A model generated the notes under the pieces. The model searched no databases, had not been told where the DNA came from, and was given only the letters and a program-made list of their open reading frames with translations. Below are positions 1,883 to 51,818 of a stretch of DNA of 64,000 bases, piece after piece. Source of the stretch: an uncultured Chloroflexia bacterium (GTDB taxonomy: Bacteria; Chloroflexota; Chloroflexia; Thermomicrobiales; UBA6265); assembly GCA_963741965.1 (NCBI GenBank), contig CAVUKC010000001.1:179008-243007 (forward strand). Reading direction: 5' to 3'. The translations under genes and the position numbers were made by a program. How positions within the stretch are numbered: position 1 is the stretch's first letter; each line of letters begins with the position of its first letter.

Positions 1883-3622
1883 TCAGCCGCGCTTGTAGAC
1901 GCGGGTTTCCCACGGGCGCAGGGTGATGCCGTCCTCGGCGTCGGGCGGTGGGTAGTTGCCGATCAACAGCTCCCCGCGCGCCCATTCAGCGGCGTCCGGC
2001 AGCTCCACCTGCGCCTCATCGCCGGAGAAGTTGCCGAGCACGAGCAGCGTGACCTCGTCCAGCGAGCGGGTGAAGGCGTACACCTTCGGGTCCTCCGGCA
2101 GCAGCATCTGGAAGTCGCCGAGCGCGATGACCGGGTGCTCGTGGCGGAGCTGGATCAGCTTGCGGTAGTGGTGGAAGACGGAATCCTCGTCCGCGCGGGC
2201 GGCGTCGGCGTTGATCTCGCTCGCGTTCGGGTTCACCGGGAACCACGGCACGCCGGTGGTGAAGCCGCCGCCGGCGTCGCCGGTCCACTGCATCGGGCTG
2301 CGGGCGTTGTCGCGACTGTGCATCCGCATCGCCGCGAGCAGCTCCTCCTCGTCGCGTCCGAGCGCGACCGCCGCCGCGGCGAAGTTGATTGCCTCGACAT
2401 CGAGGAAGTCCTTCAGCGAGGTGAAGGGCACGTTGGTCATGCCGATCTCCTCGCCCTGATAGACGTAGGGTGTGCCACGGTGCATGTGCAGCACCGTGCC
2501 GAGCATCTTCGCCGACTGCACGCGGTACTCGCCGTCGTCGCCGAAACGGGAGACGACACGCGGCTGGTCGTGGTTGTTCCAGTAGAGGCTGTTCCAGCCG
2601 ATGTCCTCCAGCCCCTCCTGCCAGCGGCCGAGCGAGGCCTTGAGATCGGTGAGCTTGAGCGGCAGCGGCTCGTACTTGTTGCCGCCGCGGTCGAGCTGGA
2701 CGTGCTCGAACTGGAAGACCATGTCGACCTCGTGCCGGCTGGGGTCGGTGTAGAGGCGCGCCTGGTCGATGGTGACGCCCGGCATCTCCCCGACGGTGAG
2801 CATCTTGTCGCGTCCCTCGAAGACCTCGCGGTGCATCTCCTGCAGGAACTCGTGGATGCGCGGGCCCGAGAAGTAGTAGGGAGAGCCGTCGCCGAGGGTG
2901 CCGTGACCGGTGGGAGCGCCGTCCGGCAGGCTGGTGTCCTTGGAGATCAGGTTGATGACGTCCATGCGGAAGCCATCGACGCCGCGGTCGAGCCACCAGT
3001 TCATCATGTCGTAGATGGCGTGTCGGACGTCCGGGTTCTCCCAGTTGAGGTCCGGCTGCTTGCGGTCGAAGAGGTGCAGGTAGTACTCGCCGGTCGCCTC
3101 GTCGTAGTCCCACGTCGGGCCGGAGAAGAACGACTGCCAGTTGGTCGGCTCGGCGCCCGGCGTGTTGGGCTCGAAGCCGTCGCGCGCCGGACGCCACCAG
3201 TACCAGTCGCGCTTCGGGTTGTCCTTGCTGGAGCGCGACTCGATGAACCACGGGTGCTCGTCGGAGGTGTGGTTGACGACGAGGTCCATCACGAGCTTGA
3301 TGTCGCGCTTTCGCGTCTCCTCGAGGAGCTCGTCGAAGTCGGCGAGGGTGCCGAAGGCGGGGTCGATGCCCTGGTAGTCGCTGATGTCGTAGCCCATGTC
3401 GGCCTGCGGCGAGGTGTAGATGGGCGAGAGCCAGATCACGTCGACGCCGAGCTCGGCGAGGTAATCCAACTTGCCGATGATGCCCTGCAGGTCGCCGATG
3501 CCGTCGCCGTTGGAGTCGGCGAAGGAGCGGGGATAGATCTGGTAGACGACGGCGTGCTTCCACCAGGCGTCCTGTTCCTCGGTATGGCTGTGGCGGCTGG
3601 CCGGTGCGTCGCTGGCGGTCAT
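1883..3622 (-). CDS. GH13 alpha-glucosidase / oligo-1,6-glucosidase family
   Basis: 579-aa ORF with QIYPRSF N-terminus and GH13 conserved regions DLVVNHTS, GFRMDVINLI, VGEMPG, YWNNHDQPR. Confidence 0.9.
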   Translation of the reverse strand: MTASDAPASRHSHTEEQDAWWKHAVVYQIYPRSFADSNGDGIGDLQGIIGKLDYLAELGVDVIWLSPIYTSPQADMGYDISDYQGIDPAFGTLADFDELLEETRKRDIKLVMDLVVNHTSDEHPWFIESRSSKDNPKRDWYWWRPARDGFEPNTPGAEPTNWQSFFSGPTWDYDEATGEYYLHLFDRKQPDLNWENPDVRHAIYDMMNWWLDRGVDGFRMDVINLISKDTSLPDGAPTGHGTLGDGSPYYFSGPRIHEFLQEMHREVFEGRDKMLTVGEMPGVTIDQARLYTDPSRHEVDMVFQFEHVQLDRGGNKYEPLPLKLTDLKASLGRWQEGLEDIGWNSLYWNNHDQPRVVSRFGDDGEYRVQSAKMLGTVLHMHRGTPYVYQGEEIGMTNVPFTSLKDFLDVEAINFAAAAVALGRDEEELLAAMRMHSRDNARSPMQWTGDAGGGFTTGVPWFPVNPNASEINADAARADEDSVFHHYRKLIQLRHEHPVIALGDFQMLLPEDPKVYAFTRSLDEVTLLVLGNFSGDEAQVELPDAAEWARGELLIGNYPPPDAEDGITLRPWETRVYKRG

Positions 3623-3706
3623 CGGGTGTCATCCTCCCTCGGTTGGTGCGCGTTCTGCTGCAAGCGTACCGGAAGAGCCGTGCCACGGGTCAGGCCCACC
3701 AGATCC

Positions 3707-3906
3707 CTGTCATCCTGAGCCGGCCAGGAGCCGCAGGCGACGCCGCACGTGTCGAAGGATCCCCCGGCGAAGCCGGTCCGTACCCTCTGGTTCCGAAGGC
3801 TCTCAGTGTCATCTTGTGTGAACCGAACATGTGAACGTCCGCCCTGCGGGCGGGGGATCCCTCGACACGCTCGGCGCTTCGCGCCTCACGGCTCGGGATG
3901 ACAGGG
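3707..3906. repeat. MITE-like foldback repeat family D, copy 1 (about 200 bp)
   Basis: Termini ctgtcatcctgagccgg ... cggctcgggatgacagg are inverted. Internal gtgtcgaaggatccc / ggatccctcgacac arms. Related copies at 35313-35511 and 44000-44233. Confidence 0.8.
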
Positions 3907-3963: not shown

Positions 3964-5416
3964 CTATGGGGCTTCCATGATCTCCGGGCGGCGCTGCCAG
4001 GCGGGGTTGGCGTGCTCGAAGGCGAGCGACGCGCGCAGCAGCTCGACCTCGCCGAGCGGCCGGCCGACGAGCTGGATGCCGACTGGCAGGCCGTCCTCCG
4101 TGAAGCCGCACGGCAGGGAGATCGCGGGCAGGCCGGTCGCCGAGATGTACCAGCAGGAGCGCATCCAGCCGAGGTAGTCGTCCTGCTCCTCACCAGCGAC
4201 CTCCCGGGGCCACGTCCACTCGGCCGGGAACGGCGGAAGCTGCACGGTCGGTGTCGGCAAGGACGTCGATGCCGTCGAAGAGTTCGACCATGCGCTGATA
4301 GAGCCGGGTACGCGCGGTGAACGCCTCGTGGATGTCCGTGGCGGTGAGCTCGAGACCGGCTTCGACGTCTGTGCGGATGTTGTCGCTGAGCGAGTCGGGC
4401 TGTGTCCGGTAGAGCTCGCCGTAGCGCTGCGAGGCGCCCCAGAAGCGGAGCGTCCGAAATGCGAAGGCCGCGTCTTCGAAGTCCGGCTCGATGTCGCGGA
4501 CCTCGGCTCCCAATTCCTCGAGCGCCGGGCGGCCATCCCGCTCCAGCACCTCCGTCACCGCCGGGTCGACCGGCAGACCACCGAGCGTGCGGGACCAGCC
4601 GACCCGCACGCCGCGCAGACTCGTGGGTGGCGCGCTCTCGGCGATGGTGGCGAACGGGCTGCCGTCGCCGGGGAGGGAGTCCGGGTCACGCGGGTCGAAC
4701 CCGGCGAGGACCGACTGCAGCAGGGCGGTGTCGGCGACGGTGCGGCCCATCGCGCCGACGACCGAGTAGCCGACCCAGCCGGTCGCCACCGGCGCGCTCG
4801 AGTTGCGGCCGATGGCGGCGCGGAGGCCGACCACGTTGCAGAACGATGCCGGGTTGCGCAGCGACCCACCGGTGTCGCTGCCGTCGGCAAGGCTGAGCAT
4901 GCCGCTCGCAAGCGCGGCGGCCGCGCCACCGGAGGAGCCACCCGCGCTCCGGTCGGTGCCGTAGGGATTTCGGGTGACGCCGAAGAGCGGGTTGAAGGTG
5001 TGGGAGCCGGCGCCCATCTCCGGCACGTTGGTCTTGCCGAGGCGGATCGCGCCGGCCTCGACCATGCGCGCCACGGTCGCCACATCTTCGTCCGGAACAT
5101 TGTCCTTGTAGATGGGGCTGCCGTAGGTGGTGCGCATGCCCTTGGTCGCGCGGAGGTCCTTGTGGGCGACGACGAGGCCGTGCAGCGGGCCGAGCGACTC
5201 GCCCCGGGCGAGCGCGTCATCGGCGGCCTGCGCCTGTGCCATCGCGCCCTCAGCGTCCATCGTCACGATCGCGTTGACGACCGGGTTGACCTCGGCGATG
5301 CGGGCGAGATACGCCTGCAGGAGCTCGCGCGCGGAGATCGCGCGGCGTCGCAGGAGGTCGCGCTGCTCGATCGCGGGAAGGTAGCAGAGGTCCGTTGCGG
5401 TGGTGGGGATGGCCAC
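3964..5416 (-). pseudogene. Amidase (amidase-signature family), interrupted by a +1 frameshift near 4261
   Basis: ORF 4190..5416 carries GGSSGGAAAALA and ends in junk after FDGIDV. ORF 3964..4536 continues LPTPTVQLPPFP...ISLPCGF...VGIQLVG in the next frame. The span is 1453 nt (1 mod 3). Confidence 0.8.
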
Positions 5417-5511
5417 AGGGTGGTGCCGCCTTGTCGTGTGATGCGCCGGCCGGCGCGTCGGGTGGTGTACGCCGGCATTGTACCCGTGCGCCGCCTGCGC
5501 TCAACCTGCGG

Positions 5512-6747
5512 TCAGACGGCTCTCATGGCGACACAGGCGTTGATGCCGCCGAACCCGAAGGCGTTGCTGAGCAGATGCGTCACCTGCTGGTCGCGGCCGC
5601 CCGGCGGGATGACGTCGAGGTCGCACGCCGGGTCCTTGTCGATCAGGTTCGCATTGCCGGGCAGGTGCCCCCGCTGCATGGCGATCGCGCAGATCGCGAC
5701 CTCCATCGCGCCGGTCGCGCCGAGCGCGTGGCCATGGAGCCCCTTTGTGCCGCTCACCGGCACCTCGTCGGCGTGGTCGCCGAGCGCGATGCGGATCGCC
5801 TTGCACTCGGTCGGCTCGTTGAGCACGGTCGATGAGCCGTGGGCGTTAACGTACTCGATCTGGTCCGGTGCGAGGTTGGCGGCGCAGAGGGCGTCCTGCA
5901 TCGCCTTCGCGGCGCGGCTGCCGTCGGGGTGCGGCCGGGTCATGTGGTGACCGTCGCTGCTGGTGCCGTAGCCGGCGAGCTCGGCATAGATGCGGGCACC
6001 ACGCGACTGCGCGTGCTCGAACGACTCGAGAACCAGCACCGTGCCACCCTCGGCGATCACGAAGCCGTCACGCCCGGCATCGAAGGGGCGGCTGGCGGTT
6101 CCTGGATCATCGTTGCGGGTACTCAGCACGCGGATCATGGCGAAGGCGCCGAAGGTGAGCGGCGCGAGCGGCGCCTCCGCTCCGCCGGCGAGCATCACCG
6201 GCACGCGACCGTCCTCGATCAGGCGGGCGGCCTCCCCGATGGCGATCATGCCAGCGGCGCAGGAGTTGCCGTTGGCGATCGAGGGGCCGTTGAGGCCCAT
6301 CTCGATGGTGATGTTGGAGGACGCCGCGCCACCGAAGACGGAGAGCGCCAGCATCGGGTTGACCTTGCCGACGCCGCCGGTGACGTAGGCGTGGTGCTGT
6401 TCCTCGGCGAATGCGACGCCGCCCAGCGCGGAGCCCATGTAGACCCCGGCGCCGGCGCGGGCGGCGTCCTCAGGGGAGAGCGCCGCGTCTTCCAGCGCCA
6501 TTTGCGCTGAAACGAGGGCAAACTGCGAGAAGCGGTCAAGCCGGCGGGCACGCTTCGGCGCCATGTAATCGACGGGGTCGAAGTCGACCTCGGCGGCGAC
6601 CTGGCTGGGGAAGTCGGACGGGTCGAAGCGGGAGATGCGGCGCACGGCGGACTCGCCGCGGCGCACGCCGTCCCACAATCCCTCCACGCCGGTCCCGATC
6701 GGGGTGATGGTGCCGATGCCGGTGATGGCGACGCGTTGCTTGTTCAT
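5512..6747 (-). CDS. Beta-ketoacyl-ACP synthase II-like (KAS I/II family)
   Basis: Start MNKQRVAITGIGTITPIG at 6747. Active-site context NSCAAG, VNAHGSST, GLHGHALGATGA (Cys-His-His). The longer 510-aa ORF is an unsupported N-terminal extension. Confidence 0.85.
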   Translation of the reverse strand: MNKQRVAITGIGTITPIGTGVEGLWDGVRRGESAVRRISRFDPSDFPSQVAAEVDFDPVDYMAPKRARRLDRFSQFALVSAQMALEDAALSPEDAARAGAGVYMGSALGGVAFAEEQHHAYVTGGVGKVNPMLALSVFGGAASSNITIEMGLNGPSIANGNSCAAGMIAIGEAARLIEDGRVPVMLAGGAEAPLAPLTFGAFAMIRVLSTRNDDPGTASRPFDAGRDGFVIAEGGTVLVLESFEHAQSRGARIYAELAGYGTSSDGHHMTRPHPDGSRAAKAMQDALCAANLAPDQIEYVNAHGSSTVLNEPTECKAIRIALGDHADEVPVSGTKGLHGHALGATGAMEVAICAIAMQRGHLPGNANLIDKDPACDLDVIPPGGRDQQVTHLLSNAFGFGGINACVAMRAV

Positions 6748-12378: not shown

Positions 12379-13821
12379 TCAGGTACCGGACCATTCCTGG
12401 CGGAGGACGTCCAGCTTGTCGTCGCTGAGATAGCCGTACCGCTGGATCCAGACACCTTCCTGGGAGTAGGGGCGCACGGCGTCGAGGACCATTGCGAGGT
12501 CGTCCGCCGACCGGTAGGCGTGAACGACCGGCATGATCGGCGCCTGGTTGTCGCGCCGGGACAGTGCATTGACCAGCCGGTGCGTGTAGGAACCCGGGAT
12601 CAGGTTGTGCGACGTGTCCGGCAGCGGCATCCCGAAAACCCCTGGCGTGAGGTCGATGGGCGCTTCCTCCAGCTCGAGATCGAAGAATCTCAGGAAGCCC
12701 TGGGTGAGCGCTTCGGGCTGGACGTCCGAGCCGCGGTTCCACGAGAGTATCGTCTCGGTCCACCAGCGGACCATCATCAGCCAGTGGAAGCTGTAGAGCT
12801 TGACCCGCTGCGCATCGACCGCACCATCCGCGCGGGCGTGCGCCGCGCCGCTCATCCGTCCCCATGGCAGCGCGAAGCCGCCGGCGGCGATGGTCATGTT
12901 GGACGCGCCGGCGTCGTCCATGGTGGCGCGGAGATCGGCGATCGCGAGCTCGACCGAGTCCGACTTGAACTCCAGCCAGTCGATCAGGCCCTGCTGCATG
13001 CTGGCCGGGTCCGCCACGAGATCGCCCCAGTCACCCGACGCGGTCATCGCGACGACAGCGTCGTTGGTCAGCGTGTGGAGCGAGTCCCACAGCACGCGGA
13101 CCGCGCCGGTGATCTGCTGCCAGTCGTAGCCGAGGTCGGTGGCCTGCCGCTGGCAGTGCTCGCAAAAACAGGTGAACAGCTTGTCGATGAAGTAGACGGG
13201 ATACTCGACCCAGTCGAGCTCGACGCCGTCGGCGTCACCGTAATGGCGGAGCAGCTCGCGCATGCGGGTACGTCCGAGGCGGCGCACGACCGGGTTGTTG
13301 AGGCAGCCGGTGAAGGCGATGGCATCGGGGTGGCTGCCTCCGATGAACCGCCGTGGGCGGTACTCGTCTCGCAGCTCGGTCGAGAAGGTGGTGGCGTCCT
13401 GGCCACCAGTTCCGCCGGGAAGCACATACGGGGTGAGATGGACGTAGGTGCGGAGTCCGCGCTCGCGGGCGCCGTCGAGCGCCTGTCGCGCGTAGTCGAC
13501 GCGCATGGCTTCCGGCGCTACTGGCGGTGGGTCCCACGGCAGGTCTTGCCAGAGCGATGGGTCCGCTGCGTGGGCGCTGTAGCGATGAAGGTTGACGACG
13601 CGCTTGCCCCACAGCGGCCGGTCGAGGATGCGCGCCTGCCCCGCGATGTCGAGCGGTGGCTCGCGCAAACCCTCGCCTGACGGCGCCTCGACGGTGACGT
13701 TCGTCGAGGTGGTCAGCGCGTTGGCGCCTGCGCGTGTGAGGTTGTCCAGGACCGTGTCGACACCCTCACTGGCGAGCTCGCCCGTGGTGATGGTGATACC
13801 GCGTTCCGCGTTGGTCGGCAT
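12379..13821 (-). CDS. Hypothetical protein, possible glycoside-hydrolase-like TIM barrel (GHL10-like)
   Basis: 480-aa ORF. VELDWVEYPVYF...FTCFCEHCQRQ resembles the DY.RYP...C.C..C signature of GHL10/YddW-type proteins. It sits in a carbohydrate context. No search was run. Confidence 0.4.
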   Translation of the reverse strand: MPTNAERGITITTGELASEGVDTVLDNLTRAGANALTTSTNVTVEAPSGEGLREPPLDIAGQARILDRPLWGKRVVNLHRYSAHAADPSLWQDLPWDPPPVAPEAMRVDYARQALDGARERGLRTYVHLTPYVLPGGTGGQDATTFSTELRDEYRPRRFIGGSHPDAIAFTGCLNNPVVRRLGRTRMRELLRHYGDADGVELDWVEYPVYFIDKLFTCFCEHCQRQATDLGYDWQQITGAVRVLWDSLHTLTNDAVVAMTASGDWGDLVADPASMQQGLIDWLEFKSDSVELAIADLRATMDDAGASNMTIAAGGFALPWGRMSGAAHARADGAVDAQRVKLYSFHWLMMVRWWTETILSWNRGSDVQPEALTQGFLRFFDLELEEAPIDLTPGVFGMPLPDTSHNLIPGSYTHRLVNALSRRDNQAPIMPVVHAYRSADDLAMVLDAVRPYSQEGVWIQRYGYLSDDKLDVLRQEWSGT

Positions 13822-14726: not shown

Positions 14727-15830
14727 ATGGCCGATCCACGCATGGAGCGGTGGGCGCAGGCGCTCACGGGTTACTCGGTTGAGGTGCAGCCGGGACAGGT
14801 GGTGGCGATCAGCGGCGGCAGCGCCGCCGAGCCTCTGCTGACGGAGATCTACCGGGAGGTGGTCGAGCGGGGCGGTCACCCGGTGCTGGTGCCGTCGATG
14901 CGCGGTGCGGTGCCGACGCTGCTTCAGCTTGGCACGGACGCGCAGCTGCAGTACATCACACCGATCGAGCGCTTCGTCCGCGAGCAGGCGGACATCGTTA
15001 TCAACGTGATGGCGGAAACGAACACGCGCGGCATGGCGAACGTCGAGCCGGCGCGCCAGTCGCTTTACCAGAAGGCGCGGAGGCCGCTGTTCGAGCGGTT
15101 CATGGAGCGCGCCGGCAGCGGTGAGATGGACTGGACGCTGACGCTGTATCCGACCGACGCCTACGCTCAGGACGCCGACATGGACACGGCGTCCTACACC
15201 GACTTCGTGCTCGCGGCGTGCAAGCTCGATCGGGATGACCCGGTGCAGGCGTGGCTCGATCTCAAGGCGGAGCAGCAGCGGCTGATCGACTGGCTCGATG
15301 GCAGGAAGCAGGTCCACCTGACCGGCCCGGACATCGACCTGACGCTGTCGATCGAAGGGCGCACCTGGGTCAACAGCGACGGCAAGCGCAACTTCCCCTC
15401 CGGCGAGATCTTCACCGGACCGGTGGAGGACTCGGTCAACGGCACCATCCGGTTCAGCTTCCCGGTGGTGACGAGTGGCCGCGAGATCGACGACATCCGG
15501 CTGCGGTTCGAGAACGGCAAGGTGGTCGCGGCCTCGGCGACGAAGAACGAGGACTACCTCCTGGAGCAGCTCGACAGCGACGAGGGCGCGCGCTATCTCG
15601 GCGAATTCGCCTTCGGCACGAACTTCGATATCCAGCAGTTCACGCGCAACATCCTGTTCGACGAGAAGATCGGCGGCACGGTGCACATGGCGCTCGGGCT
15701 CGGCTACCCGGAGACGGGCAGCACGAACAAGAGCGCGATCCACTGGGACATGATCGCGGACCTCCGCCAGGGCGGGCAGGTGGACGTCGACGGCGAGCCC
15801 TTCATGCGCGACGGCCGCTTCGTCGTGTAG
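14727..15830 (+). CDS. M29 family aminopeptidase (AmpS/PepS, aminopeptidase T type)
   Basis: MADPRMERWAQALTGYSVEVQPGQ start preceded by ggaagg. EIFTGP, FAFGTN and HMALG motifs of thermophilic metalloprotease M29. Confidence 0.85.
   Translation: MADPRMERWAQALTGYSVEVQPGQVVAISGGSAAEPLLTEIYREVVERGGHPVLVPSMRGAVPTLLQLGTDAQLQYITPIERFVREQADIVINVMAETNTRGMANVEPARQSLYQKARRPLFERFMERAGSGEMDWTLTLYPTDAYAQDADMDTASYTDFVLAACKLDRDDPVQAWLDLKAEQQRLIDWLDGRKQVHLTGPDIDLTLSIEGRTWVNSDGKRNFPSGEIFTGPVEDSVNGTIRFSFPVVTSGREIDDIRLRFENGKVVAASATKNEDYLLEQLDSDEGARYLGEFAFGTNFDIQQFTRNILFDEKIGGTVHMALGLGYPETGSTNKSAIHWDMIADLRQGGQVDVDGEPFMRDGRFVV
15766..15830 (+). repeat. Direct repeat, left copy (last 21 codons plus stop of the aminopeptidase)
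   Basis: The 65 nt recur at 16659-16723 with 2 mismatches, at an offset of 893 bp. Confidence 0.9.
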
Positions 15831-15912
15831 ATCCTGGTGTGATGAATGGCTGCATAATGGAGACGAATCTTCTCGTCTGACTGTCGTCACTTCACCGCCG
15901 GAGCGCAGGACC

Positions 15913-16266
15913 GTGGTACACGCATCGCATCAGCTGGAGTTGCCGGAGATCCCGACTGCCATCCGCGACCGGATCGTTCCATACCACCGTGGGTTCGATA
16001 TCCTGGAGCATCTGCGAGCGCTCGAAGTGGACCATCGGGGTTTGCTCGACGCCATCGTGCAAACCATTGACATGCTGGAGTCGTACCCAGGCGTTGAGTC
16101 CACAACCGTCGACTACGATGAAGACGACGTGGTGTATCCGGTGACTGTATGGGTGCGAACGGTGTATGCGGGTGAGGAGCGGTTTCGGCACATCCTCATC
16201 CTCGAGAACAAGGCGGAAGAGATGCTTCGGAACTACCCGGAGCTCGTGCTGGTGGCCATTCTGTGA
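15913..16266 (+). CDS. Hypothetical protein, upstream partner of the HEPN gene (candidate antitoxin)
   Basis: 117-aa ORF ending 6 nt before the HEPN ORF. GC is lower than the flanks. No canonical MNT GS...DxD motif is visible. Confidence 0.5.
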   Translation: MVHASHQLELPEIPTAIRDRIVPYHRGFDILEHLRALEVDHRGLLDAIVQTIDMLESYPGVESTTVDYDEDDVVYPVTVWVRTVYAGEERFRHILILENKAEEMLRNYPELVLVAIL

Positions 16267-16272
16267 GTCGCC

Positions 16273-16647
16273 ATGTTTGACCCGAGGCGGTATCTTTCGC
16301 TGGCGGAACATGTGCTTGCCGCGAGTGAAGACGAGGCCGCTTGGCGATCGGCACTGAGTCGTGCCTACTATGCCGCGTTCCTTGTCGCTCGCGAGTATGT
16401 CGATGGGCGAGGAATCAAAGGGCGCGCCCGATCAGGACGACGCCTGGGCTCTCACGAGCGCGTAATCTTCTCTGTAGGCGCGATTCCTGACGAAATGTCG
16501 AGCACGATGCGGAATACGCTTTTCAGGTTGAAGCGGCTACGCACGAATGCCGATTATGACCTCGACTATGTCGACGCGCAGGAACATATCGGCGAGGCGC
16601 TGGAGGACGCCGAGCGAGTGATCGCCTGGATCGACGGTCTTGTGTAA
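16273..16647 (+). CDS. HEPN-domain protein (UPF0332-like), candidate toxin
   Basis: 124 aa. AYYAAFLVAREYV helix, RRLGSH (Rx4H) and C-terminal RLRTNADYD, as in UPF0332/HEPN proteins. Confidence 0.6.
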   Translation: MFDPRRYLSLAEHVLAASEDEAAWRSALSRAYYAAFLVAREYVDGRGIKGRARSGRRLGSHERVIFSVGAIPDEMSSTMRNTLFRLKRLRTNADYDLDYVDAQEHIGEALEDAERVIAWIDGLV

Positions 16648-16658
16648 CGTCGTCCTGC

Positions 16659-16723
16659 GCCGGGGCGGGCAGGTCGACGTCGACGGCGAGCCCTTCATGC
16701 GCGACGGCCGCTTCGTCGTGTAG
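16659..16723 (+). repeat. Direct repeat, right copy (orphan copy of the aminopeptidase 3' end)
   Basis: ggcgggcaggtCgacgtcgacggcgagcccttcatgcgcgacggccgcttcgtcgtgtag. It would encode ...VDVDGEPFMRDGRFVV-stop. Confidence 0.9.
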
Positions 16724-16750
16724 CGACGGTCACCACGTGGGGGTGTGGCC

Positions 16751-18104
16751 TCAGGCGCTGGTCGGTGGTTGAAGCGTGCCGACCTCGTCGGCGAGCCATG
16801 GCTCGTCGGTGGCCGAGCGGGAACCCGCGGCGTTGATCCTCGCGCCCGGCGGCGGCAGGACCTCGCCGCGCAGCAACGGATCGTCCGTCTCCTCCATCCA
16901 TCGCAACAGCCGCGCGAGCAGGTCGTCGCGGATGTCGCGGTAATCCGCACGGTCGGCGACGTTCACGCGCTCGTGCGGGTCGTACACGGTGTCGTGGAGT
17001 GCGATTTCGGGGAGCTCGATGTCCTCGAGCCCTGCCTCCAGCAGCACGTCCCGGCTCGGGCTGTCGTCGATGTTGGCCAGCACCGGCGTGCGGCGATCGC
17101 CAAAGCGGCGGATCAGCGCGTACCTCTCCGTGCGGATCAGCCGCTGCGGCTCGTAGGCGGCGTGGTAGGTGACCTCCGCGAAAACCTCGTCGCGGGTCGA
17201 CGCGACCTCTCCGCTGATGAGTGGCAGCAGCGAATGACCTTGCAGCCAGGCCGGCCGCTCGATGCCGGCGAGCTCGCAGATGGTGGGGTAGAGGTCGAGC
17301 TGCGCGACCAGCGCGTCGCTGACCACGCCGCCCTCGAACCCGCCCGGTCCGCGCATGATCAGCAGCACGCCGACGCCGTGGTCGGTGAGGTTGCTCTTCA
17401 TCATCGGGAAGGCGATGCCGTGGTCGGTGGTGGCGATCACGAGCGTGTTGTCGGCAAGTCCCGAATCGTCGAGCGCGGCGAGGATCTCGCCGTAGGCGTC
17501 GTCGAGATCGGTCAGCATCTGCTGGTAGCCGGCCATATCCTGTCGAATACGCGGCGTGTCGGGCAGCGGCGCGGGCGGAGCGAGGTAGCGGCCGGCGTCG
17601 CCCAGGTGCTTCAGGGAAGGGCCGGTGCGTCTCGAAGAAGCCGGCGTCGAGGAAGAACGGCTGGCCCGGCTGTGACGCCGCCTCGCGAATCGTCGCGACC
17701 GATGCCTCGACTGTCTTCGGCGTCTTCTCGTACGCCTCGTCATGTACCTCGGTGTAACCCACCTCATGGGAGTCGCCGTCGGTTACGTGCTGCGCACCGG
17801 CAAGCACGGTGCGGTACCCGGCGTCGCGCAGGGTGGTGGCGAGGTGTTGGGAGGGATCGCGAAGGCGGAAGCCACGGTGGGCGAGACCCATCATGCCGCT
17901 CTGATGCGCCGACTGGCCGGTGAGCATGCTGGCGCGACTGGGCGAGCAGGTCGGCGCGCCGGAGTACGCGCGGCGGAAGAGGACGCCCTGCTCGGCCAGC
18001 CGCTGCAGGTTCGGGGAGTGCAGGCCGTGACCGTACGGCTGGATGTATCGCCCGGTGTCGTGCGAATGCAGGTAGAGGATGTTCGGTCGGGCGGTGTCGG
18101 GCAT
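16751..18104 (-). pseudogene. Sulfatase (formylglycine type), interrupted by a +1 frameshift near 17615
   Basis: N-terminal frame has NILYLHSHD and CSPSRASMLTG up to ETHRPF. The C-terminal frame continues LKHLGDAGRYLAPPAPLPDTP...TTDHG. The span is 1354 nt (1 mod 3). Confidence 0.8.
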
Positions 18105-44602: not shown

Positions 44603-47600
44603 ATGCTATCGCTGCCAGCACGTTCGACCCTTTCAATTGGAGGCCGGCATCACGCGCGGGGTGTGTCGGGAGCCGGCTGGTGGATCCACCTGCTCGGAGC
44701 GATCGCCCTGGTGATGGGCCTGTTGTTGCCGCTGACGGACGCCGGGCAGACGCTCGCGGCCCCGATGGGGCCAGGGACGGACGCGCCCCGGTACCAGTCC
44801 GCCAGCGACACCGTGCCGGCGGCACCGGTACAGGTGGCGGCGGTCGGCGACTTTCAGGAGGCGCTCGGCTGCGCCGCGTTCGACCCTTCCTGCCAGACGA
44901 CCCAGCTGACCAACAACGGCGGCATCTGGACCGGCGTGTTCGCGATTCCTGCGGGAACCTACCAGTGGCAGATTCAGGCGGTCGCGCCGGACGGCACCGT
45001 CTCCACCTACGGCCAGGGCGGCCTCGGTGGCGGCGCGCAGCAGCTGAGTGTCGGCGATGGCGATGCCGGTGCGTTCTTCTCCCTCGACACCCATACCAAC
45101 GACGCCGCCGCGCAGGCGGTCCCCGCGCTGTACTCGGTGAACGTCGATGGCGCCGCCGCGGCGCTCCAGCCGGAGGGCGGCCAGTACACCGCGCTCATCA
45201 CCTCTCAGGGCGGGCAGGCGAGTGCGCAGGTCTATGCCGGCGCTGACCCGGTCGGTGGCCCGCAGCCGGTGCAGCTGAACCCGGGCGCGAACCGGCTCAC
45301 CTTCGATGCGAACGGCCAGCTGGTCAACGTGGAGCCGCTGGCGAGCGGATCGCTCACGGTGGAGCGCCTTGATGCGAGCGGTGCGCCGCTCTCCGGTGGC
45401 TGCTATCAAATCCGCAGCGGCAACAGCATCGTCAATCAGGGCTGTGACGCCGATGACGGCGCCGACGGCTACACCAGCATGAGCTTCCCCGAGGGGATGC
45501 CGAGCGGCAGCGTCACGGTGGTCGAGGTCACGCCGCCCTCCGGTGCTGAGCCGGTCGAGAGCCAGGATGCCCAGCTGCAGGCGGGCGACAACGTCGTGAC
45601 GCTTCAGCCGGCAGCGGCCGAGGCCACGGAGACGCCCGCGGGTGGGCAGGTGATCGAGGGCGGTGGCGAGACGCCTGCCGCGACCGAAACCGCGGCCACC
45701 CAGAGCGAGCCAGGCGATCTGCTCGTCTATCTTGTGGACCAGAATGGCGCGCCGGTCGGCCGGAGCCTGCTTCGCGCTCCTGCGCGACGGCAACCTCGCC
45801 GAGGAGAGCTGCGACACCGAGCAGTACGACTCGGCGGAGTTCGCCAACAACGGCACCACCGGCTTCTTCGGCGTGCCGAGCGGGACGTACACGCTGCGCC
45901 TGACGCAAGCGCCGGGCGGCGGATCGGCCGACGACCGCCAGGTCGAGGTGCTTGCCGGTCAGCAGGTCGACGAGACCGTGACCATTCAGGTCGCCGCGCC
46001 GACGGAAGCTGCGACCGAGACGCCGGTGCCAACGGAGGCGCCGACGCAGACGCCCGAGCCGCAACCGGCCAACCTCACGGTGCAGACGCTCGACCAGAAC
46101 GCTCAGCCAGTACCGGGGGCCTGCTACCAGCTCATCCAGGACGGCACGACCGTCGCGGAGAGCTGTGACACGGAGAACTACGAGTCGGCGGACTTCGCGA
46201 ACAACGGCAACACCGGATTCTTCGGCGTGCCGAGCGGCACCTACACCCTGCGCATGACCGACGGCCCGGACAATGTCACCCTGGCGAGTGACCAACAGGT
46301 CGACATCGCGCCGGGCAGCGACGACACCGTGACGGTCAATGTTCAGGCCGCCCAGCCGACCGAGACTCCGGTGCCGACGCAGGCGCCGACGGAGACGCCG
46401 GTTCCCACCGAGACCCCCGTCCCAACTGAAACCGCTGTTCCCACGGAGACGCCAGCGCCGCCGGGCACGCTGACCATCCAGCTGCTCGATCAGGGTGGCA
46501 ACCCGATCGGCGGCGCCTGCTGGCAGTTGCTTGACGCCAACGGCGCGGTGGTGCAGGAGAGCTGTGACACCACGGATCAGGAGTCGGCCGAGTTCGCCAA
46601 CAACGGCAACACGGGCTTCTTCGATGTCCCCGCCGGGTCCTACACGCTCCATCTCGTCTCCGCGCCGCAGGGCGCGACCGCAGAGGATCGCAGCGTCGAT
46701 GTCACTCCTGGTGGCGACGACACCGTGCAGGTTTCGGTGACCGTTGCCCAGCCGACGGAAACGCCGGCCCCGACGCAGGCACCCACCGAGACCCCCGTGC
46801 CGACTGAAACGGCCGTTCCGACCGGGACGGCGGCTCCAACCGAGACCCCGACCGAGGAAGCCGCCCCCGGCGACCTCACGGTCGAGCTGCTCGACGCCAG
46901 CCAGCAGCGGGTCGGCGGCGCATGCTTCGTCCTGCTGCAGGACGGCAACCAGGTCGCGGAGAGCTGCGACGACGCGCCGTATGACACCGGCGAGTTTGTG
47001 AAGAACGGGCTCACCGGGTTCTTCGGGGTGCCGTCTGGCACCTACACGCTGCGCCTGACGTCCGCGCCGAACGGCCTGACCGCCGATGACCAGCAGGTCG
47101 AGGTCGTCGCTGGCACCGACACGCCGGTGACGGTCAACGCGACCGGTGGGGTGACGCCCACGGCGACGGCGACCACCGCGCCGACCGAAGCCCCGACGGT
47201 CACAGCCACAACCGAGCCGACGAGCGCGCCGACCGATGAGGCGCAGGGGCCGCAACCGGGTCCTGAGGCCAACCTGATCGTCACACTGCAGGACGCCAAC
47301 GGCAGCCCGATCGGTGGCGCCTGCTTCCAGATCGAGATGAAGGGCCAGCCGCCCATCGAGCGGTGCGATGCCGACGACCCGCTGCCCGGCAACGGCAACT
47401 CCGGCTTCTTCAACGTGCCGAGCGGGCAGTACACCCTCACCGAGACGACGGTGCCCGCGGGCACCAACCCGATCGAGCCGCGGGAGATCACGATCCAGCC
47501 AGGCGACAACCCGAACCTCGTCGTGAACCCGGCGCAGCAGGGGCTTGCTCCGAGTGGAACCCAGACGCCCACGAGCGGCGCGGGCAATGTCCTGATCGAC

Positions 47601-50600
47601 ACCACCGCGATCGGCGAGGGGCTCTGTGTCGAGCTCAACACCACCGGTGCGATCGCCTTCGTGGAGCCGCCGGCGGCCTGTGACAACGGTGACGGCGACC
47701 TCAACGACCAGCCTGGCCTGATCGAGATCGCCAACGTGCCGCCCGGCGACTACACCCTCACCGTTACCAGCGGTGCCGAGGGGATCCCGGACGTGACTGT
47801 GACCGTGTCGGAGACCGGCCAGGTGACGGTGCAGCTGGGCGAGGCCGCCACGGCGACCGCAGCGCCCACGGAGACGCCGGTTCCGACAGAGACGCCCACT
47901 GCGACCGCGACCGCCACGCTGGCACCGACGGAGACGCCGGTTCCCACCGAAACGCCGGTGCCGACCAACACGCCAGAGCCGACGGCGACGTCGACACCCG
48001 CGCCGACCACCGGCACCATCACGGTCACCGTGGTGGACAGCGAAGGCGCGCTCGGCGGTGCCTGCGTCGACATCACCAACCCGTCCGGCGGGCCGTACAC
48101 CTTCTGCGACGATGACGGTGACGGCACGATCGAGGTTCCGGACGCCGTGTTCGGCACCCAGACGATCAGCATGTCCACGGTTCCGGAGGGCTACGCCACC
48201 CCGGCCGATCAGCAGGTGGAGCTCTCGACCGACCAGCAGAGCGTGAGCGTCGAGTTCCAGCTCTCACTCGCCAACGGCACGATCCGCGTCGTCAGCGAGA
48301 CCGCCGACGGCACCGATCTGCCCGGCGCCTGCGTCGCGGTCGATGACGGCGACCCGGTGTGTGACACCGACGGTGACGGCGTGCTGATCTTCGAGCAGGT
48401 CCCGGCTGGCGACCACACCGTCGCGCAGACCACGCCGCCCGAGGGGTACCAGCCGGTCGACCCGCAGACGGCGACCGTCGTTGCCGGTGAGACCGTCGAG
48501 GTGCGGTTCACGAACGCGCCGGCGACCGGCTCCCTGGTCGCGACGGTGCTAAACGCGGACGGCGATCCGGTCGAGGGCATCTGCGTCGACATCAGCGCCG
48601 AGGGAGGCGAGCCGCAGACGCTCTGCGAGCAGGGTGACGGCGGCACCTTCAGCTTCGACAATGTCGCGCCGGGGACGTACAGCGTCTCGGTGAGCCAGGT
48701 GCCGCAGGCGTACGTCACGCCGGATCCCGTCAGTGTCGACGTCACCGCCGGCCAGGAGGCCACGGTCCAGATCGAGCTGGCCGCGGCCCCGCCGCAGACG
48801 GGCAGCGCGCTGCTGACGTTGCTCAGCGAAGACGGCCAGGCGGCCGCCGGAGTCTGCATCGGCCTGGTGAATCAGGACAGCGGCGAACAGCTCGGCCCGT
48901 TCTGCGACAACGGCGAGGGCGACAACGACGCCACTGAGGGCGTGCTGCTGGTGCAGGACATCCCGGTCGGCACCTACGAGGTCGTCTTCCCGGACGCGAA
49001 CAGCTTCACGACGACCGGCGCGGCGCTGCTGCGGATGCAGGACACCGCCGAGCCGATCATCATCGAGATCACGGCGGGAGAGACGACCGAGATGGACGTC
49101 GTCGTGCCTGGCCTGCTGGTGCTCGGCGGTATCGAGATGACCACTGTCGACGCCGCGACCGGCGACCCCGTGGCGGGCGCCTGCTACACGATCAGCACCT
49201 CCGAGCCGACCGTCGTCTGCGACGGCGGTGACGGCGACGAGTCCGCCGACGACGGCACCGTGCTGGTGACCGGGCTCGCGCAGGGCGATTACACCGTCAG
49301 CATGAGCACGCCGCCCGATGGCTACACCGCCGCAGCCGACCAGACCGCGACCGTGACCGGCGGTGGCACGGCGTCGCTCCGGTACGAGGTCACGGCAGAG
49401 GTCACGACCGGCACGCTGACCGTCACAAAGGTCGACGGCGCAGGCGATGCCCTGTCGGGTACCTGCTTCCGCCTCGAGAACGGCGGCGGCTCGGTTGCCC
49501 AGGTCTGCGACGATGATGACGGCGCCGACGACGGCACGCTCGTGTTCAGCGACGTCCCGGCGGGCACCTACACGCTCGTCGAAACGCGGACGCCGGGCAG
49601 CCAGTACCAGGCCGCGCCGAACCGCACGGTCGAGATCGGCGCTGGCGAGGACGTCGCCATCGAGGTGACCAACACCGCCGCGCCGGGCCGGCTCTACGTG
49701 GTGAAGGTCGACAGCGCCGACCCATCGACGCGACTCGAGGACGCCTGCTTCCGCCTCGACGGGAGCGCGACCTACGGTCCGTTCTGCGACGGCGACGACC
49801 TCAACGTTGACGGCCGCACGGTGTTCAGCAACGTCGCGCCGGGCACCTACACGCTGGTGGAGACCCAGGCGCCGGCCGGCTACGATGCCGCCGATGACCG
49901 CGAGGTCACCATCAACCCCGGCGTCACCCTGCAGATCACGGTGCAGGACGAAAAGACCCCGCCGCCGCCGGAGGCCGGCACGCTGGTGGTGCACAAGCTG
50001 GACGAGAACAACGAGGCGCTCGCCGGCGGCTGCTTCCGCCTGTTCGACGGCGACACGCCGGTAAGCGGCCAGGTGTGCGACATCACCGACGGCACCAACG
50101 ACGCGACGATCACGTTCGAGAACGTCCCGGTCGGCACGTGGACCCTGCGCGAGACGCTGGCGCCGTCGCCGAGCTACCAGCTCGCGCCGGACCAGAATGT
50201 GACGATCGAGAACGGCAAGACGACCGAGGTCAACGTCACCGACCAGCTCAAGCGAGGTCGCATTCTCGTCAAGAAGGTGACGCCGCAGGGCAAGGCGGTC
50301 ACGGGCGCCTGCTTCGAGCTCTCGCCGGACCAGGGTGACCCGCTCTGCTCCGACGCCAACGGGCAGATTCTGTTCGAGGACGTGCCGGTCGGCAGCTACA
50401 CGCTCACCGAGACGACCGTGCCGTACGGATACAAGAAGGCGGACCCGGTCGAGGACATCACCGTCAACCCGGGCCAGACCACCGTGGTGACGGTGGAGAA
50501 CGAAAGCCAGCCGCCACCCAACACCGGCTCGGTGCAGGTGCTCAAGTTCGTCTGCCCGGTCAGCACGGCCGATGAGGAGCACACGAGCTTCCTCGGCGGC

Positions 50601-51818
50601 GCGGCGGGCAACGCCGAGCTGTCGCAGACCAAGGGCTGCGCGCCGGCGAACGCCGAGTTCACGCTCGTCGGGCAGGACGGCGCGGACGGACCGGGCGCGT
50701 TCAGCACCGGCAACGACGGCCAGTACCAGGTGACGCTGCCGGCGAAGGTCTACCGGCTCGACGAGACCGATCCGGACCTGCCGGGCAACTCGGCGGCACT
50801 GCTGCGCGTCGAGGTCGGCAAGCTGACGACGGTGGTGGTGATCAACTACGTGGCGCCGCCGGCACCGGAACCGGTCAACATCCACGTCGCCAAGTACACC
50901 TGCCAGGCGGGGTTCAACGGCACGACATACGAGGACTTCGCGGCGAGCTGCATGAGCGACTCGCAGCTGACCAACAACATCACCGTGCGAGCCGAGGGTC
51001 CGGTTGACCTCAAGGCCATCACCGGTGACGGTGGCAAGACCGGCCGCACGGTCTTCGCCAACCAGCCCGCGGGCACGTACACGATCTACGAGGAGCGGCC
51101 GTACAACATCCCGACGAACTACGGGTTCTGTGGGTGGAACGGCAACTGGCCGGCGGACTTCAAGACCGTGAACGGCGCGATCACCGCCAAGCTCGGTCAG
51201 GGAGACGACTTCAGCTGCGTCTTCTTCAACATCCCCGAGCCGGTGACCGACTCGACCGGCGTGATCCTGGTGCGGAAGTACGTCTGCGACGTCGACGCGC
51301 CGCCGAAGGGGTACAAGTTCGCCGACGAGTGCAGGCTCAGCGACCAGAACGCGTCGTTCGACCTGAAGCAGTTCAACGAGGAGCTGCAGAACTACCCGGA
51401 GCAGGGCACGCGGCAAACGGCGAACCCGGATGGCTTCGTGCGATTCATCAACCTGCGGCCTGGCAGCTACCAGCTACGGGAGGTGGACGCGAACTGGTGC
51501 TACGCCAACTCCAACAGCGTCAACACCAAGGGCGACGTGGTCGTGAAGGCTGGACAGGTCTCGCTGGTGTCCATCTACAACTGCGTCGGCACGTCGCAGC
51601 CGCCCAACACCGGCAGCGGTGACGCGGCTGGGCTGCTCAACCCGTCAGAGCCGGCAGCGCCGGCTCCTGGGGCGGGCAACGGCGCAATCGGCGTGACGCC
51701 GGGCATCGCCTGGCCGCTGGCCATCATCGGCGCGGTGCTGCTCGCGTTGCGATCGCGGAAGGTACTGGCGCCGGGGTACGACTGGTCGAAGGCGGAGGAC
51801 GACCGGGACGCCGCCTGA
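44603..51818 (+). pseudogene. Giant cell-surface protein (about 2400 aa) with about 19 tandem prealbumin/SpaA(Cna-B)-like domains; split by a +1 frameshift near 45761
   Basis: ggagga RBS and signal/TM segment WWIHLLGAIALVMGLLLPL. Pullulanase-associated-like AAVGDFQEALGCAAFDPSCQ module. Repeating G.L.V..LD....P..GACF.L......C......F..VP.G.YTL.E units. C-terminal TM plus RSRK. ORFs 44483..46168 and 45663..51818 join as QNGAPVG|GACFALL. The span is 7216 nt (1 mod 3). Confidence 0.8.
45993..48014 (+). repeat. Five Thr/Pro-rich linker-coding tracts inside the giant gene (PTETPV, about 18-nt periodicity)
   Basis: Linkers at about 45993-46070, 46347-46463, 46746-46868, 47145-47270 and 47841-48014. 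Domains 2-6 between them are near-duplicates (FANNGNTGFFGVPSGTYTLR). Confidence 0.8.

Follow-up and report, generated by a model that had tools for sequence, protein, structure and literature searches.

The stretch of DNA analysed here (the window, 64,000 nt) belongs to an uncultured Chloroflexia bacterium (GTDB lineage Chloroflexota; Chloroflexia; Thermomicrobiales; UBA6265) and carries, between a gene for an M29 aminopeptidase and a convergent sulfatase gene, an 893-bp unit with two small open reading frames (ORFs). The second of these, ORF2, encodes a HEPN protein, the first, ORF1, belongs to an orphan family, and the unit is bracketed by a direct repeat of the 3' end of the M29 gene. With moderate confidence, we favour the view that the unit is a toxin-antitoxin (TA)-like occupant of a hotspot, swapped by recombination anchored in the flanking genes, and that the repeat is a one-off scar. 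The anatomy of the site, the identities of the two proteins, the variability of the hotspot among relatives and the uniqueness of the repeat were observed directly, and the TA function and the recombination route are inferred.

A two-gene cassette bracketed by a direct repeat

The M29 gene (14727-15830, forward strand; 367 aa), which encodes a thermophilic metalloprotease and forms the conserved left flank of the site, is intact: it matches Pfam Peptidase_M29 (PF02073) with 300 bits over profile positions 3-406 of 406, and its orthologues in syntenic loci are 83-93% identical at the amino acid level. A repeat search showed that its last 70 nt, including the TAG stop (15761-15830), recur on the same strand at 16654-16723, with 67 of 70 positions identical and a start-to-start spacing of 893 nt. 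The three mismatches are confined to the 5'-most 22 nt, and the remaining 48 nt, which include the TAG, match perfectly. An earlier prediction made on this DNA had reported a direct repeat around the cassette of 65 nt with two mismatches; this corresponds to the inner portion of the longer repeat, the third mismatch lying 2 nt further 5'. From base composition, the probability of a 67/70 match arising by chance in the 64-kb window at 68% GC was estimated as P < 1e-20. The left copy is the functional end of the M29 gene. The right copy (22 codons plus TAG; tblastn identity to M29 of 95.5% over 22 aa) is an orphan, non-coding where it stands and out of frame with the HEPN ORF. Through one of the mismatches, the orphan copy contains a 12-nt sequence that is perfectly palindromic (GTCGACGTCGAC, 16673-16684), where the functional copy reads GTGGACGTCGAC (15780-15791).

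Between the two copies lie, all on the forward strand, a leader (15831-15912) with a conserved GCATAATGG motif and a GGAG upstream of a GTG start, then ORF1 (15913-16266; 117 aa), a putative antitoxin or partner, and ORF2 (16273-16647; 124 aa; Pfam PF05168), an AF0298-like HEPN-T protein and putative RNase toxin. As originally described, the two genes are tightly spaced, being co-oriented with a gap of 6 nt. Another 6 nt (16648-16653), a presumed illegitimate joint in our reading of the sequence, separate the HEPN stop from the orphan copy, and here the resemblance to what precedes the left copy in the M29 gene breaks off (4/10 matches by our own reading). On the right, a 27-nt spacer (16724-16750) leads to the stop (16751) of the convergent sulfatase gene (16751-18104, reverse strand; Pfam Sulfatase and SGSH_C), the conserved right flank, so that the orphan copy does sit just before this stop, as had been noted. 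The lower GC of the cassette was likewise evident, at 0.575-0.61 across 15800-16600 against 0.66-0.72 in the flanks. GC at third codon positions (GC3) is 0.74 in ORF1 and 0.64 in the HEPN gene against 0.93 in the M29 gene, and low GC3 of the cassette genes is present in every lineage.

The M29-sulfatase gap differs between close relatives

Related loci were gathered through the M29 protein and through exact-protein look-ups of cassette relatives, which yielded about 25 Thermomicrobiales contigs (L numbers below). The gap between the M29 and sulfatase genes is either empty or holds one or two cassettes, at times with further genes. The cassettes are of three types, A, B and C, which are deeply divergent versions of the ORF1-HEPN pair, 36-63% identical between types, the window carrying type C. 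The gap is empty in L005, with a spacer of 222 nt. Single cassettes are found in L001, L002 and L003 (C type; ORF1 71-74% and HEPN 75-79% identical to the window), in L093, L096 and L181 (A type) and in L177 and L110 (B type), and longer arrangements in L084-88 (A, a lone C-type ORF1 and a DHDPS gene), L094 (an SDR gene, A and B) and L089-92 and L095 (A, a methyltransferase gene and B). In L108 and L109, the M29 gene has neither a cassette nor a sulfatase gene nearby.

Cassette type does not track the M29 gene, because two pairs of relatives differ in content: L177 and L181 have M29 proteins that are 94% identical, yet they carry B and A cassettes, respectively (ORF1 54% and HEPN 56% identical), and L001 and L005, with M29 proteins 88% identical, are occupied and empty. 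Moreover, the M29 of the window is nearer to those of A-carriers (85-88%) than to those of C-carriers (83%). The sites without a cassette in L005, L108 and L109 and the turnover of content between close relatives bear out the original view of the pair as an accessory two-gene module.

On all related contigs with upstream sequence (about 20), no repeat is present and the M29 gene ends in an ordinary stop, from which the start of the pair lies 64-87 nt away except in the L089 type (225 nt) and in L094 (1159 nt), which has the SDR gene in between. Directly past the M29 stop, all lineages diverge. The two genes are found on the same contigs, and the gap between them is 5-6 nt in all cassettes. In the window, as in L001 and L003, they share one frame and are parted only by a TGA and two codons; a read-through fusion of ORF1 and HEPN in C-type cassettes was dismissed given the 5-nt gaps of A-type cassettes.

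The A-type cassettes of L093 and L096 and the B-type cassette of L110 have a common leader and the first ~15 codons of ORF1 in common, which indicates that the cassettes are mosaic, with breakpoints inside ORF1. In L093, L096, L110 and L149, the first ~110 nt after the M29 stop, with the leader and these ~15 codons (ATGTCTCACGCATCCGAATACACCGCC…), are nearly identical, and ORF1 is only 52-54% identical overall. Decay of the pair is asymmetric: the HEPN gene has been lost beside an intact ORF1 by deletion in L084-88 (five samples) and by frameshift in L089-92 plus L095 and in L110, and the reverse, loss of ORF1 beside an intact HEPN gene, was seen in none of these loci, a small sample of three arrangements in which the L110 frameshift could be a sequencing error. 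In L149, both genes have decayed.

L094 contains an orphan 3' fragment of the sulfatase gene (2594-2692, aa 419-451) between cassettes A and B, ahead of the real sulfatase 3' end (3581-3898). This is the mirror image of the orphan M29 end of the window, and it indicates that a segment comprising cassette A and the start of the neighbouring sulfatase came from an L093-like genome. In L089, the last 34 nt of the A-type HEPN gene (6342-6375) are repeated 96 nt downstream (6438-6471; 91% identical), right before the methyltransferase gene, and the same orphan HEPN 3' end is present in L090-L092 and L095. The sulfatase gene itself is reduced to a 67-aa 3' remnant in L181 and is frameshifted at about aa 394 of 451 in several independent contigs (L089 8142-9523; L095 9803-11145).

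The repeat occurs in the window only

The terminal 90 nt of the M29 genes of 13 loci served as queries against 60 loci that contain an M29 3' end. Of these, none but the window had a second copy, and no other orphan M29 3' end was present, occupied sites included. In particular, L001, L002 and L003 carry a C-type cassette at the same locus and no repeat. This uniqueness indicates that the 70-mer is not the att site or target duplication of the module. Both copies in the window carry the lineage-specific allele …GGCCGCTTCGTCGTGTAG, found in no relative, and the event was therefore recent, within the window genome alone or with a very close relative.

The original prediction had held that a miniature acquired module inserted into the M29 3' end and restored the reading frame. 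The starts of the related cassettes past an ordinary stop, on about 20 contigs and with no repeat, do not agree with insertion into the gene as a general rule, and the uniqueness of the repeat, together with the L094 sulfatase fragment, which points to flank-anchored recombination, argues against a self-inserting module. One reading, to which we give only a slim chance, is that the unit is a miniature integrative cassette: it would use the M29 3' end as its target, supply a replacement copy of it, and owe its movement either to a trans-acting recombinase or to RecA-mediated integration and excision of an 893-bp circle through the 70-nt homology. This reading would explain why direct repeats bracket the unit exactly with the M29 frame preserved, why GC3 is so much lower in the cassette than in the host genes, and why one C-type pair lies in another context, beside an nSTAND/AAA_16 gene on JGI contig 3300056388; a repeat of 70 nt also exceeds the minimum length usually quoted for RecA-dependent recombination. 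However, no other occupied site has the repeat, not even those with the same cassette type at the same locus, the cassettes normally begin downstream of an intact M29 end, and an element targeting M29 leaves the orphan sulfatase fragment of L094 unexplained. The ORF1-HEPN family is almost confined to the M29-sulfatase locus.

The search for mobility machinery also counts against such an element. No integrase, recombinase or transposase gene was found in the unit or among the ten neighbouring genes, in agreement with what had been noted originally, and scans for tRNA genes, Rfam families and terminators at the site were all empty. These neighbours are metabolic, transport or regulatory genes (FAD oxidoreductase, methyltransferases, UbiA, GH4, MFS, ArsR, LysE and others), and their synteny is common to the relatives. 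The only inverted repeat bracketing the unit (27 nt, 74% complementarity) is one of 22 comparable pairs in 4.5 kb, that is, at chance level. Neither the terminal inverted repeats, short target-site duplication and transposase of transposons, insertion sequences and miniature inverted-repeat transposable elements, nor a conserved end motif, nor the recurrence of the same att-type repeats at other occupied sites that marks an integrative element was found; the duplication here measures 70 nt, and empty sites are present in diverged relatives only. The site resembles the integrative elements that replace 3' ends (tRNA and tmRNA islands) in that a direct repeat of the target 3' end brackets the insert and the gene is intact; it differs from them in the absence of an integrase, the protein-coding target, the insert of 0.8 kb and the lack of the repeat at other occupied sites.

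A proposed recombination anchored in the flanking genes

We propose instead that the M29-sulfatase gap of this Thermomicrobiales clade is a recombination hotspot whose modules do not move by themselves. Recombination between related genomes would swap, stack and erode them, and it would find its anchors of homology in the conserved ends of the M29 and sulfatase genes as well as in conserved stretches of the cassettes themselves. In this view, the repeat would be a scar left by a single event of homology-facilitated illegitimate recombination, with a homologous junction on one side and an illegitimate one on the other, between two close relatives that were about 96% identical here and differed in hotspot content. 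Two versions of this event are equally possible. In the first, incoming DNA with an M29 3' end and a cassette would have found its anchor in M29, with the illegitimate joint 70 nt ahead of the recipient stop; in the second, incoming DNA with an empty site would have been anchored in the sulfatase gene and joined illegitimately just after the stop of a resident HEPN gene. The repeat would end exactly at the TAG because the genomes stop being alike there, and an event of this kind would account for the sharp joint on the left, 6 nt past the HEPN stop, as well as for the mirror-image scar in L094. The TA-like function is suggested by the tight pairing of the two genes, by their turnover and stacking in the hotspot and by the loss of the HEPN gene first.

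Homology-facilitated illegitimate recombination is documented in transformable bacteria (PMC3240628). Flank-anchored displacement that leaves orphans behind is described for the effector-immunity arrays of type VI secretion systems (T6SS), and for the Rhs and contact-dependent inhibition (CDI) systems cited in the same work, where homology-facilitated illegitimate recombination was proposed (PMC5361080). As in the T6SS arrays of Vibrio cholerae, a conserved flanking gene serves as anchor for variable toxin/immunity modules downstream, and orphan protective genes and orphaned 3' fragments accompany them (PMC5361080). In contrast to those arrays, the anchors here would be unrelated housekeeping-type genes, M29 and sulfatase, that lie outside the toxin system, the modules are cytoplasmic TA-like pairs, and the scar duplicates the end of a flanking gene and not that of an immunity gene.

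A duplication in situ, in which the last 70 nt of M29 were copied into the HEPN-sulfatase spacer beside a resident cassette, is an unlikely but by no means negligible alternative. It could have come about by templated double-strand-break repair, by replication template switching, or by tandem duplication followed by deletion. Vertical residence of the cassette is plausible, given C-type cassettes at the same locus without the repeat in L001 and L003; the lineage-specific allele shared by both copies fits a local origin; and L001, L003 and L005 have a far longer spacer than the window, which indicates that a deletion or rearrangement occurred there. Nevertheless, a copy that ends exactly at the stop would be a coincidence under random local copying and is expected under recombination, and tandem duplication followed by deletion needs two events and a precise boundary. 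The differences between the copies (CTC/CTG, CAG/CGG and GTG/GTC) are all states present in functional orthologues, two of them at synonymous third positions, a weak argument against copying in place; a comparison of allelic origin with random decay did not discriminate between the two, which leaves room for the in-situ origin.

An assembly artefact, in which sequences from a population of cassette-bearing and cassette-free members were merged at their common M29 3' end, is in our view highly improbable. In its favour, many of the relatives are metagenome-assembled genomes, and the sulfatase gene of the window has a 1-nt insertion near 17600 relative to the orthologues of L005, L093 and L003 (two tblastn segments in different frames), either a recent pseudogene or a sequencing error; the inserted base lies within 17590-17610, where the window reads …GCACCTGGGCG… against …GCGCC-GGCCG… in the orthologues. 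Against an artefact, the copies differ at three positions, the junction of HEPN and orphan copy is not common to both haplotypes, so that a graph path would need real reads, the source contig spans 955,726 bp, and comparable orphan fragments occur in independent assemblies.

The anatomy of the window, with one homologous and one non-homologous junction, and the mirror case in L094 fit homology-facilitated illegitimate recombination between relatives. Several points weigh against this scenario. The comparison of allelic origin with random decay for the three differences gave P = 0.10-0.39, which does not discriminate, and nothing in the recombination model leads one to expect that these differences cluster within the first 22 nt (P ~0.03, post hoc). 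Sliding-window identity of the M29 gene to 12 relatives, all 76-88% identical at the nucleotide level, resolved no mosaic. No genome more than 95% identical that shows either parental state was found, the nearest being ~88% identical in the M29 gene, and the predicted empty junction ...GTCGTGTAG|CGACGGTCACC... was not recovered, the 27-mer after the orphan copy being absent from all fetched loci; the exact empty site that the original prediction called for (M29 stop followed by cgacggtcacc...) did not appear there either. The scenario presumes DNA uptake in this organism, by competence or another route. As for the TA-like function, toxicity, neutralisation and RNase activity of the pair are putative. 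The tight co-oriented pair, the turnover relative to the host and the toxin-first loss are as in type II-like TA systems; the DNA-binding antitoxin of such systems is missing, ORF1 showing no helix-turn-helix (HTH), ribbon-helix-helix or AbrB match or fold, no DNA-binding domain and no known antitoxin fold. Finally, a strict sigma-70 scan returned no full promoter at the cassette.

If flank-anchored exchange is correct, the locus offers a small, clean example of TA-like modules exchanged without a dedicated mobility gene, in which the ends of flanking housekeeping-type genes act as anchors and orphan ends as dated scars. It also carries a warning for annotation, in that a cassette flanked by direct repeats of a gene 3' end should not be taken for an integrative element on that ground alone. 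We consider the novelty modest, consisting of a tidy case of flank-anchored cassette exchange and a new partner family for an AF0298-type HEPN protein.

An AF0298-like HEPN protein and its orphan partner

The original description of the unit as a HEPN two-gene cassette holds for ORF2, on the strength of Pfam, profile and Foldseek matches; ORF1 proved to be an orphan family. ORF2 passes the Pfam HEPN family PF05168 with 32 bits against a cut-off of 22, and a profile of its family (25 relatives) matches PDB entries 9xbd (E = 5e-10), 9xbc and 2hsb/AF0298 (E = 8e-4). Its AlphaFold2 (AF2) model is an all-alpha bundle of five helices with a predicted local distance difference test (pLDDT) score of 95, for which Foldseek returned 2hsb first (template modelling (TM) score 0.66, ~21% identity), followed by HepT, TT1696 and TM0613. 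All Foldseek E-values exceed 1e-3, so that the fold evidence backs the sequence evidence and does not stand alone. In an alignment of the 25 sequences, R25, R30, H61, R90, D94 and Y95 are invariant, and the motif R-T-N-A-D-Y (R90-x3-D94-Y95) has an aspartate where the canonical Rx4-6H motif has its histidine. In AF0298-like HEPN-T proteins, an aspartate replaces this histidine and a second conserved, N-terminal histidine provides a possible alternative active site (Anantharaman et al.; PMC3710099). On sequence grounds, ORF2 is classified as one of these AF0298-like HEPN (HEPN-T) proteins, and it may act as an RNase toxin through an alternative R90/D94/H61 site.

ORF2 shares with the AF0298-like HEPN-T group (PF05168, 'UPF0332'; 2hsb, 9xbd) an above-threshold Pfam score, the fold, and the motif aspartate with an N-terminal histidine, and differs in its low identity to 2hsb and in its close family, which is clade-specific and comprises about 20 sequence clusters. 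The arrangement of a small HEPN gene directly after a small partner gene also recalls the HepT/MntA type VII TA system, and HepT structures (6m6w, 7bxo and 5yep) are the next-best structural matches of ORF2. As leads only, Y95 adjoins the motif in a manner reminiscent of the AMPylated tyrosine of HepT, and PDB 9xbc differs from 9xbd by a Y-to-F change at the tyrosine aligned to Y95. In contrast to HepT/MntA, ORF2 lacks the canonical Rx4-6H histidine and its partner is not a minimal nucleotidyltransferase (MNT) protein, ORF1 having no NTP_transf_2 match and no G-S...DxD motif.

ORF1 finds no counterpart in Pfam, NCBIfam, PADLOC, the PDB sequences or the plasmid and phage collections; a search of 5.8 billion proteins yielded just 12 homologues of it, and one of 1.84 billion proteins 8 representative clusters. 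Its AF2 model (pLDDT 88.8; predicted TM score 0.82) is alpha+beta with the topology a-a-b-b-a-b. Foldseek gave nothing at E ≤ 1e-3, the best matches being generic alpha+beta domains, and an MNT antitoxin appeared at rank 36 only (E = 0.07, TM 0.43). Since there is no MNT profile match and the predicted topology differs, ORF1 is not the MNT partner usual for HEPN-T proteins; the possibility of a divergent MNT protein was rejected on these grounds and that of the weak Foldseek match. The most conserved feature of ORF1 is an invariant acidic patch, D-Y-D-E-D-D (residues 67-72), between two strands. ORF1 may be the antitoxin or neutraliser of the HEPN protein, and one could speculate that the acidic patch faces the arginine-rich HEPN site.

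AF0298-like HEPN genes of other phyla follow overlapping, unannotated genes of 103-119 aa (L183 1142-1869, on the Gloeothece citriformis plasmid pP742402; L184 1136-1884; L175 2690-3435). The Gloeothece plasmid HEPNs are distant relatives (36% identical), and these upstream partners have no detectable similarity to ORF1 or to one another. A kinship of ORF1 with the outgroup partners (L175 and the Gloeothece plasmids) was likewise rejected, with no significant similarity and a best hhalign match of 24 columns at a probability of 1.2%. The AF0298-like subgroup may thus have a broader range of uncharacterised non-MNT partners. An AF0298-type HEPN protein with an alternative active site and a previously undescribed partner family make the pair a testable candidate for non-MNT neutralisation.

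Alternatively, the pair could be a vertically inherited, fast-evolving accessory of the M29 locus, for instance an RNA-binding regulator with its partner, and not a TA system. The missing Rx4-6H histidine of the HEPN protein would suit such a role, as would the restriction of the family to one clade and the position of nearly every known member directly downstream of M29. However, we find this improbable in view of the presence/absence pattern and type turnover at 88-94% M29 identity, the tandem stacking, the HEPN-first decay and the persistently low GC3; moreover, related HEPNs stand beside unrelated small upstream partners on cyanobacterial plasmids and in other phyla, and most M29 orthologues have no such neighbour.

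A bolder combination would make the 893-bp unit a recombinase-free 'homing' cassette, which circularises via the 70-nt repeats, re-enters related M29 3' ends by RecA and is stabilised by HEPN/ORF1 addiction, and at the same time make ORF1 a new class of HEPN antitoxin whose acidic DYDEDD hairpin blocks the arginine-rich active site. The two proposals taken jointly have poor odds in our estimate. The circle would carry the junction HEPN stop-cgtcgt-CCTGCGCC...TAG-atcctggtg. Were this true, the unit would be a minimal mobile element that owes its mobility to nothing but a fragment borrowed from its target gene.

Leader and putative promoter

The hexamer CATAAT (15853-15858), part of the GCATAATGG motif of the leader, could serve as a -10 element. 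All C-type ORF1 genes, and the A-type ORF1 of L084, have the motif conserved in front of them, and as judged from its sequence, the operon probably has its own -10 element here. In its longer form, GCATAATGG(A/G)G, the motif lies ~55 nt upstream of ORF1 (window 15851-15862; L001 4833-4846; L003 2843-2856; L084 138-177 and 962-1001) and is likely to be a -10 box or an operator. The other cassettes have TGTATA(A/G)-like elements in its place.

Additional observations

A Thermomicrobiales metagenome-assembled genome (L024) carries tandem M29 paralogues (4001-5101 and 5322-6422) that are 67% and 61% identical to the M29 of the window. Beside the HTH-M29 gene pair of the window, a 480-aa ORF with high GC3 (12379-13821, reverse strand) has no Pfam match. 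It represents a conserved gene, since L001 holds at the equivalent position a 487-aa gene that also has none. Further downstream, the window contains a very long ORF of 2051 aa (45663-51818, forward strand) with a coding-like GC3 of 0.91.

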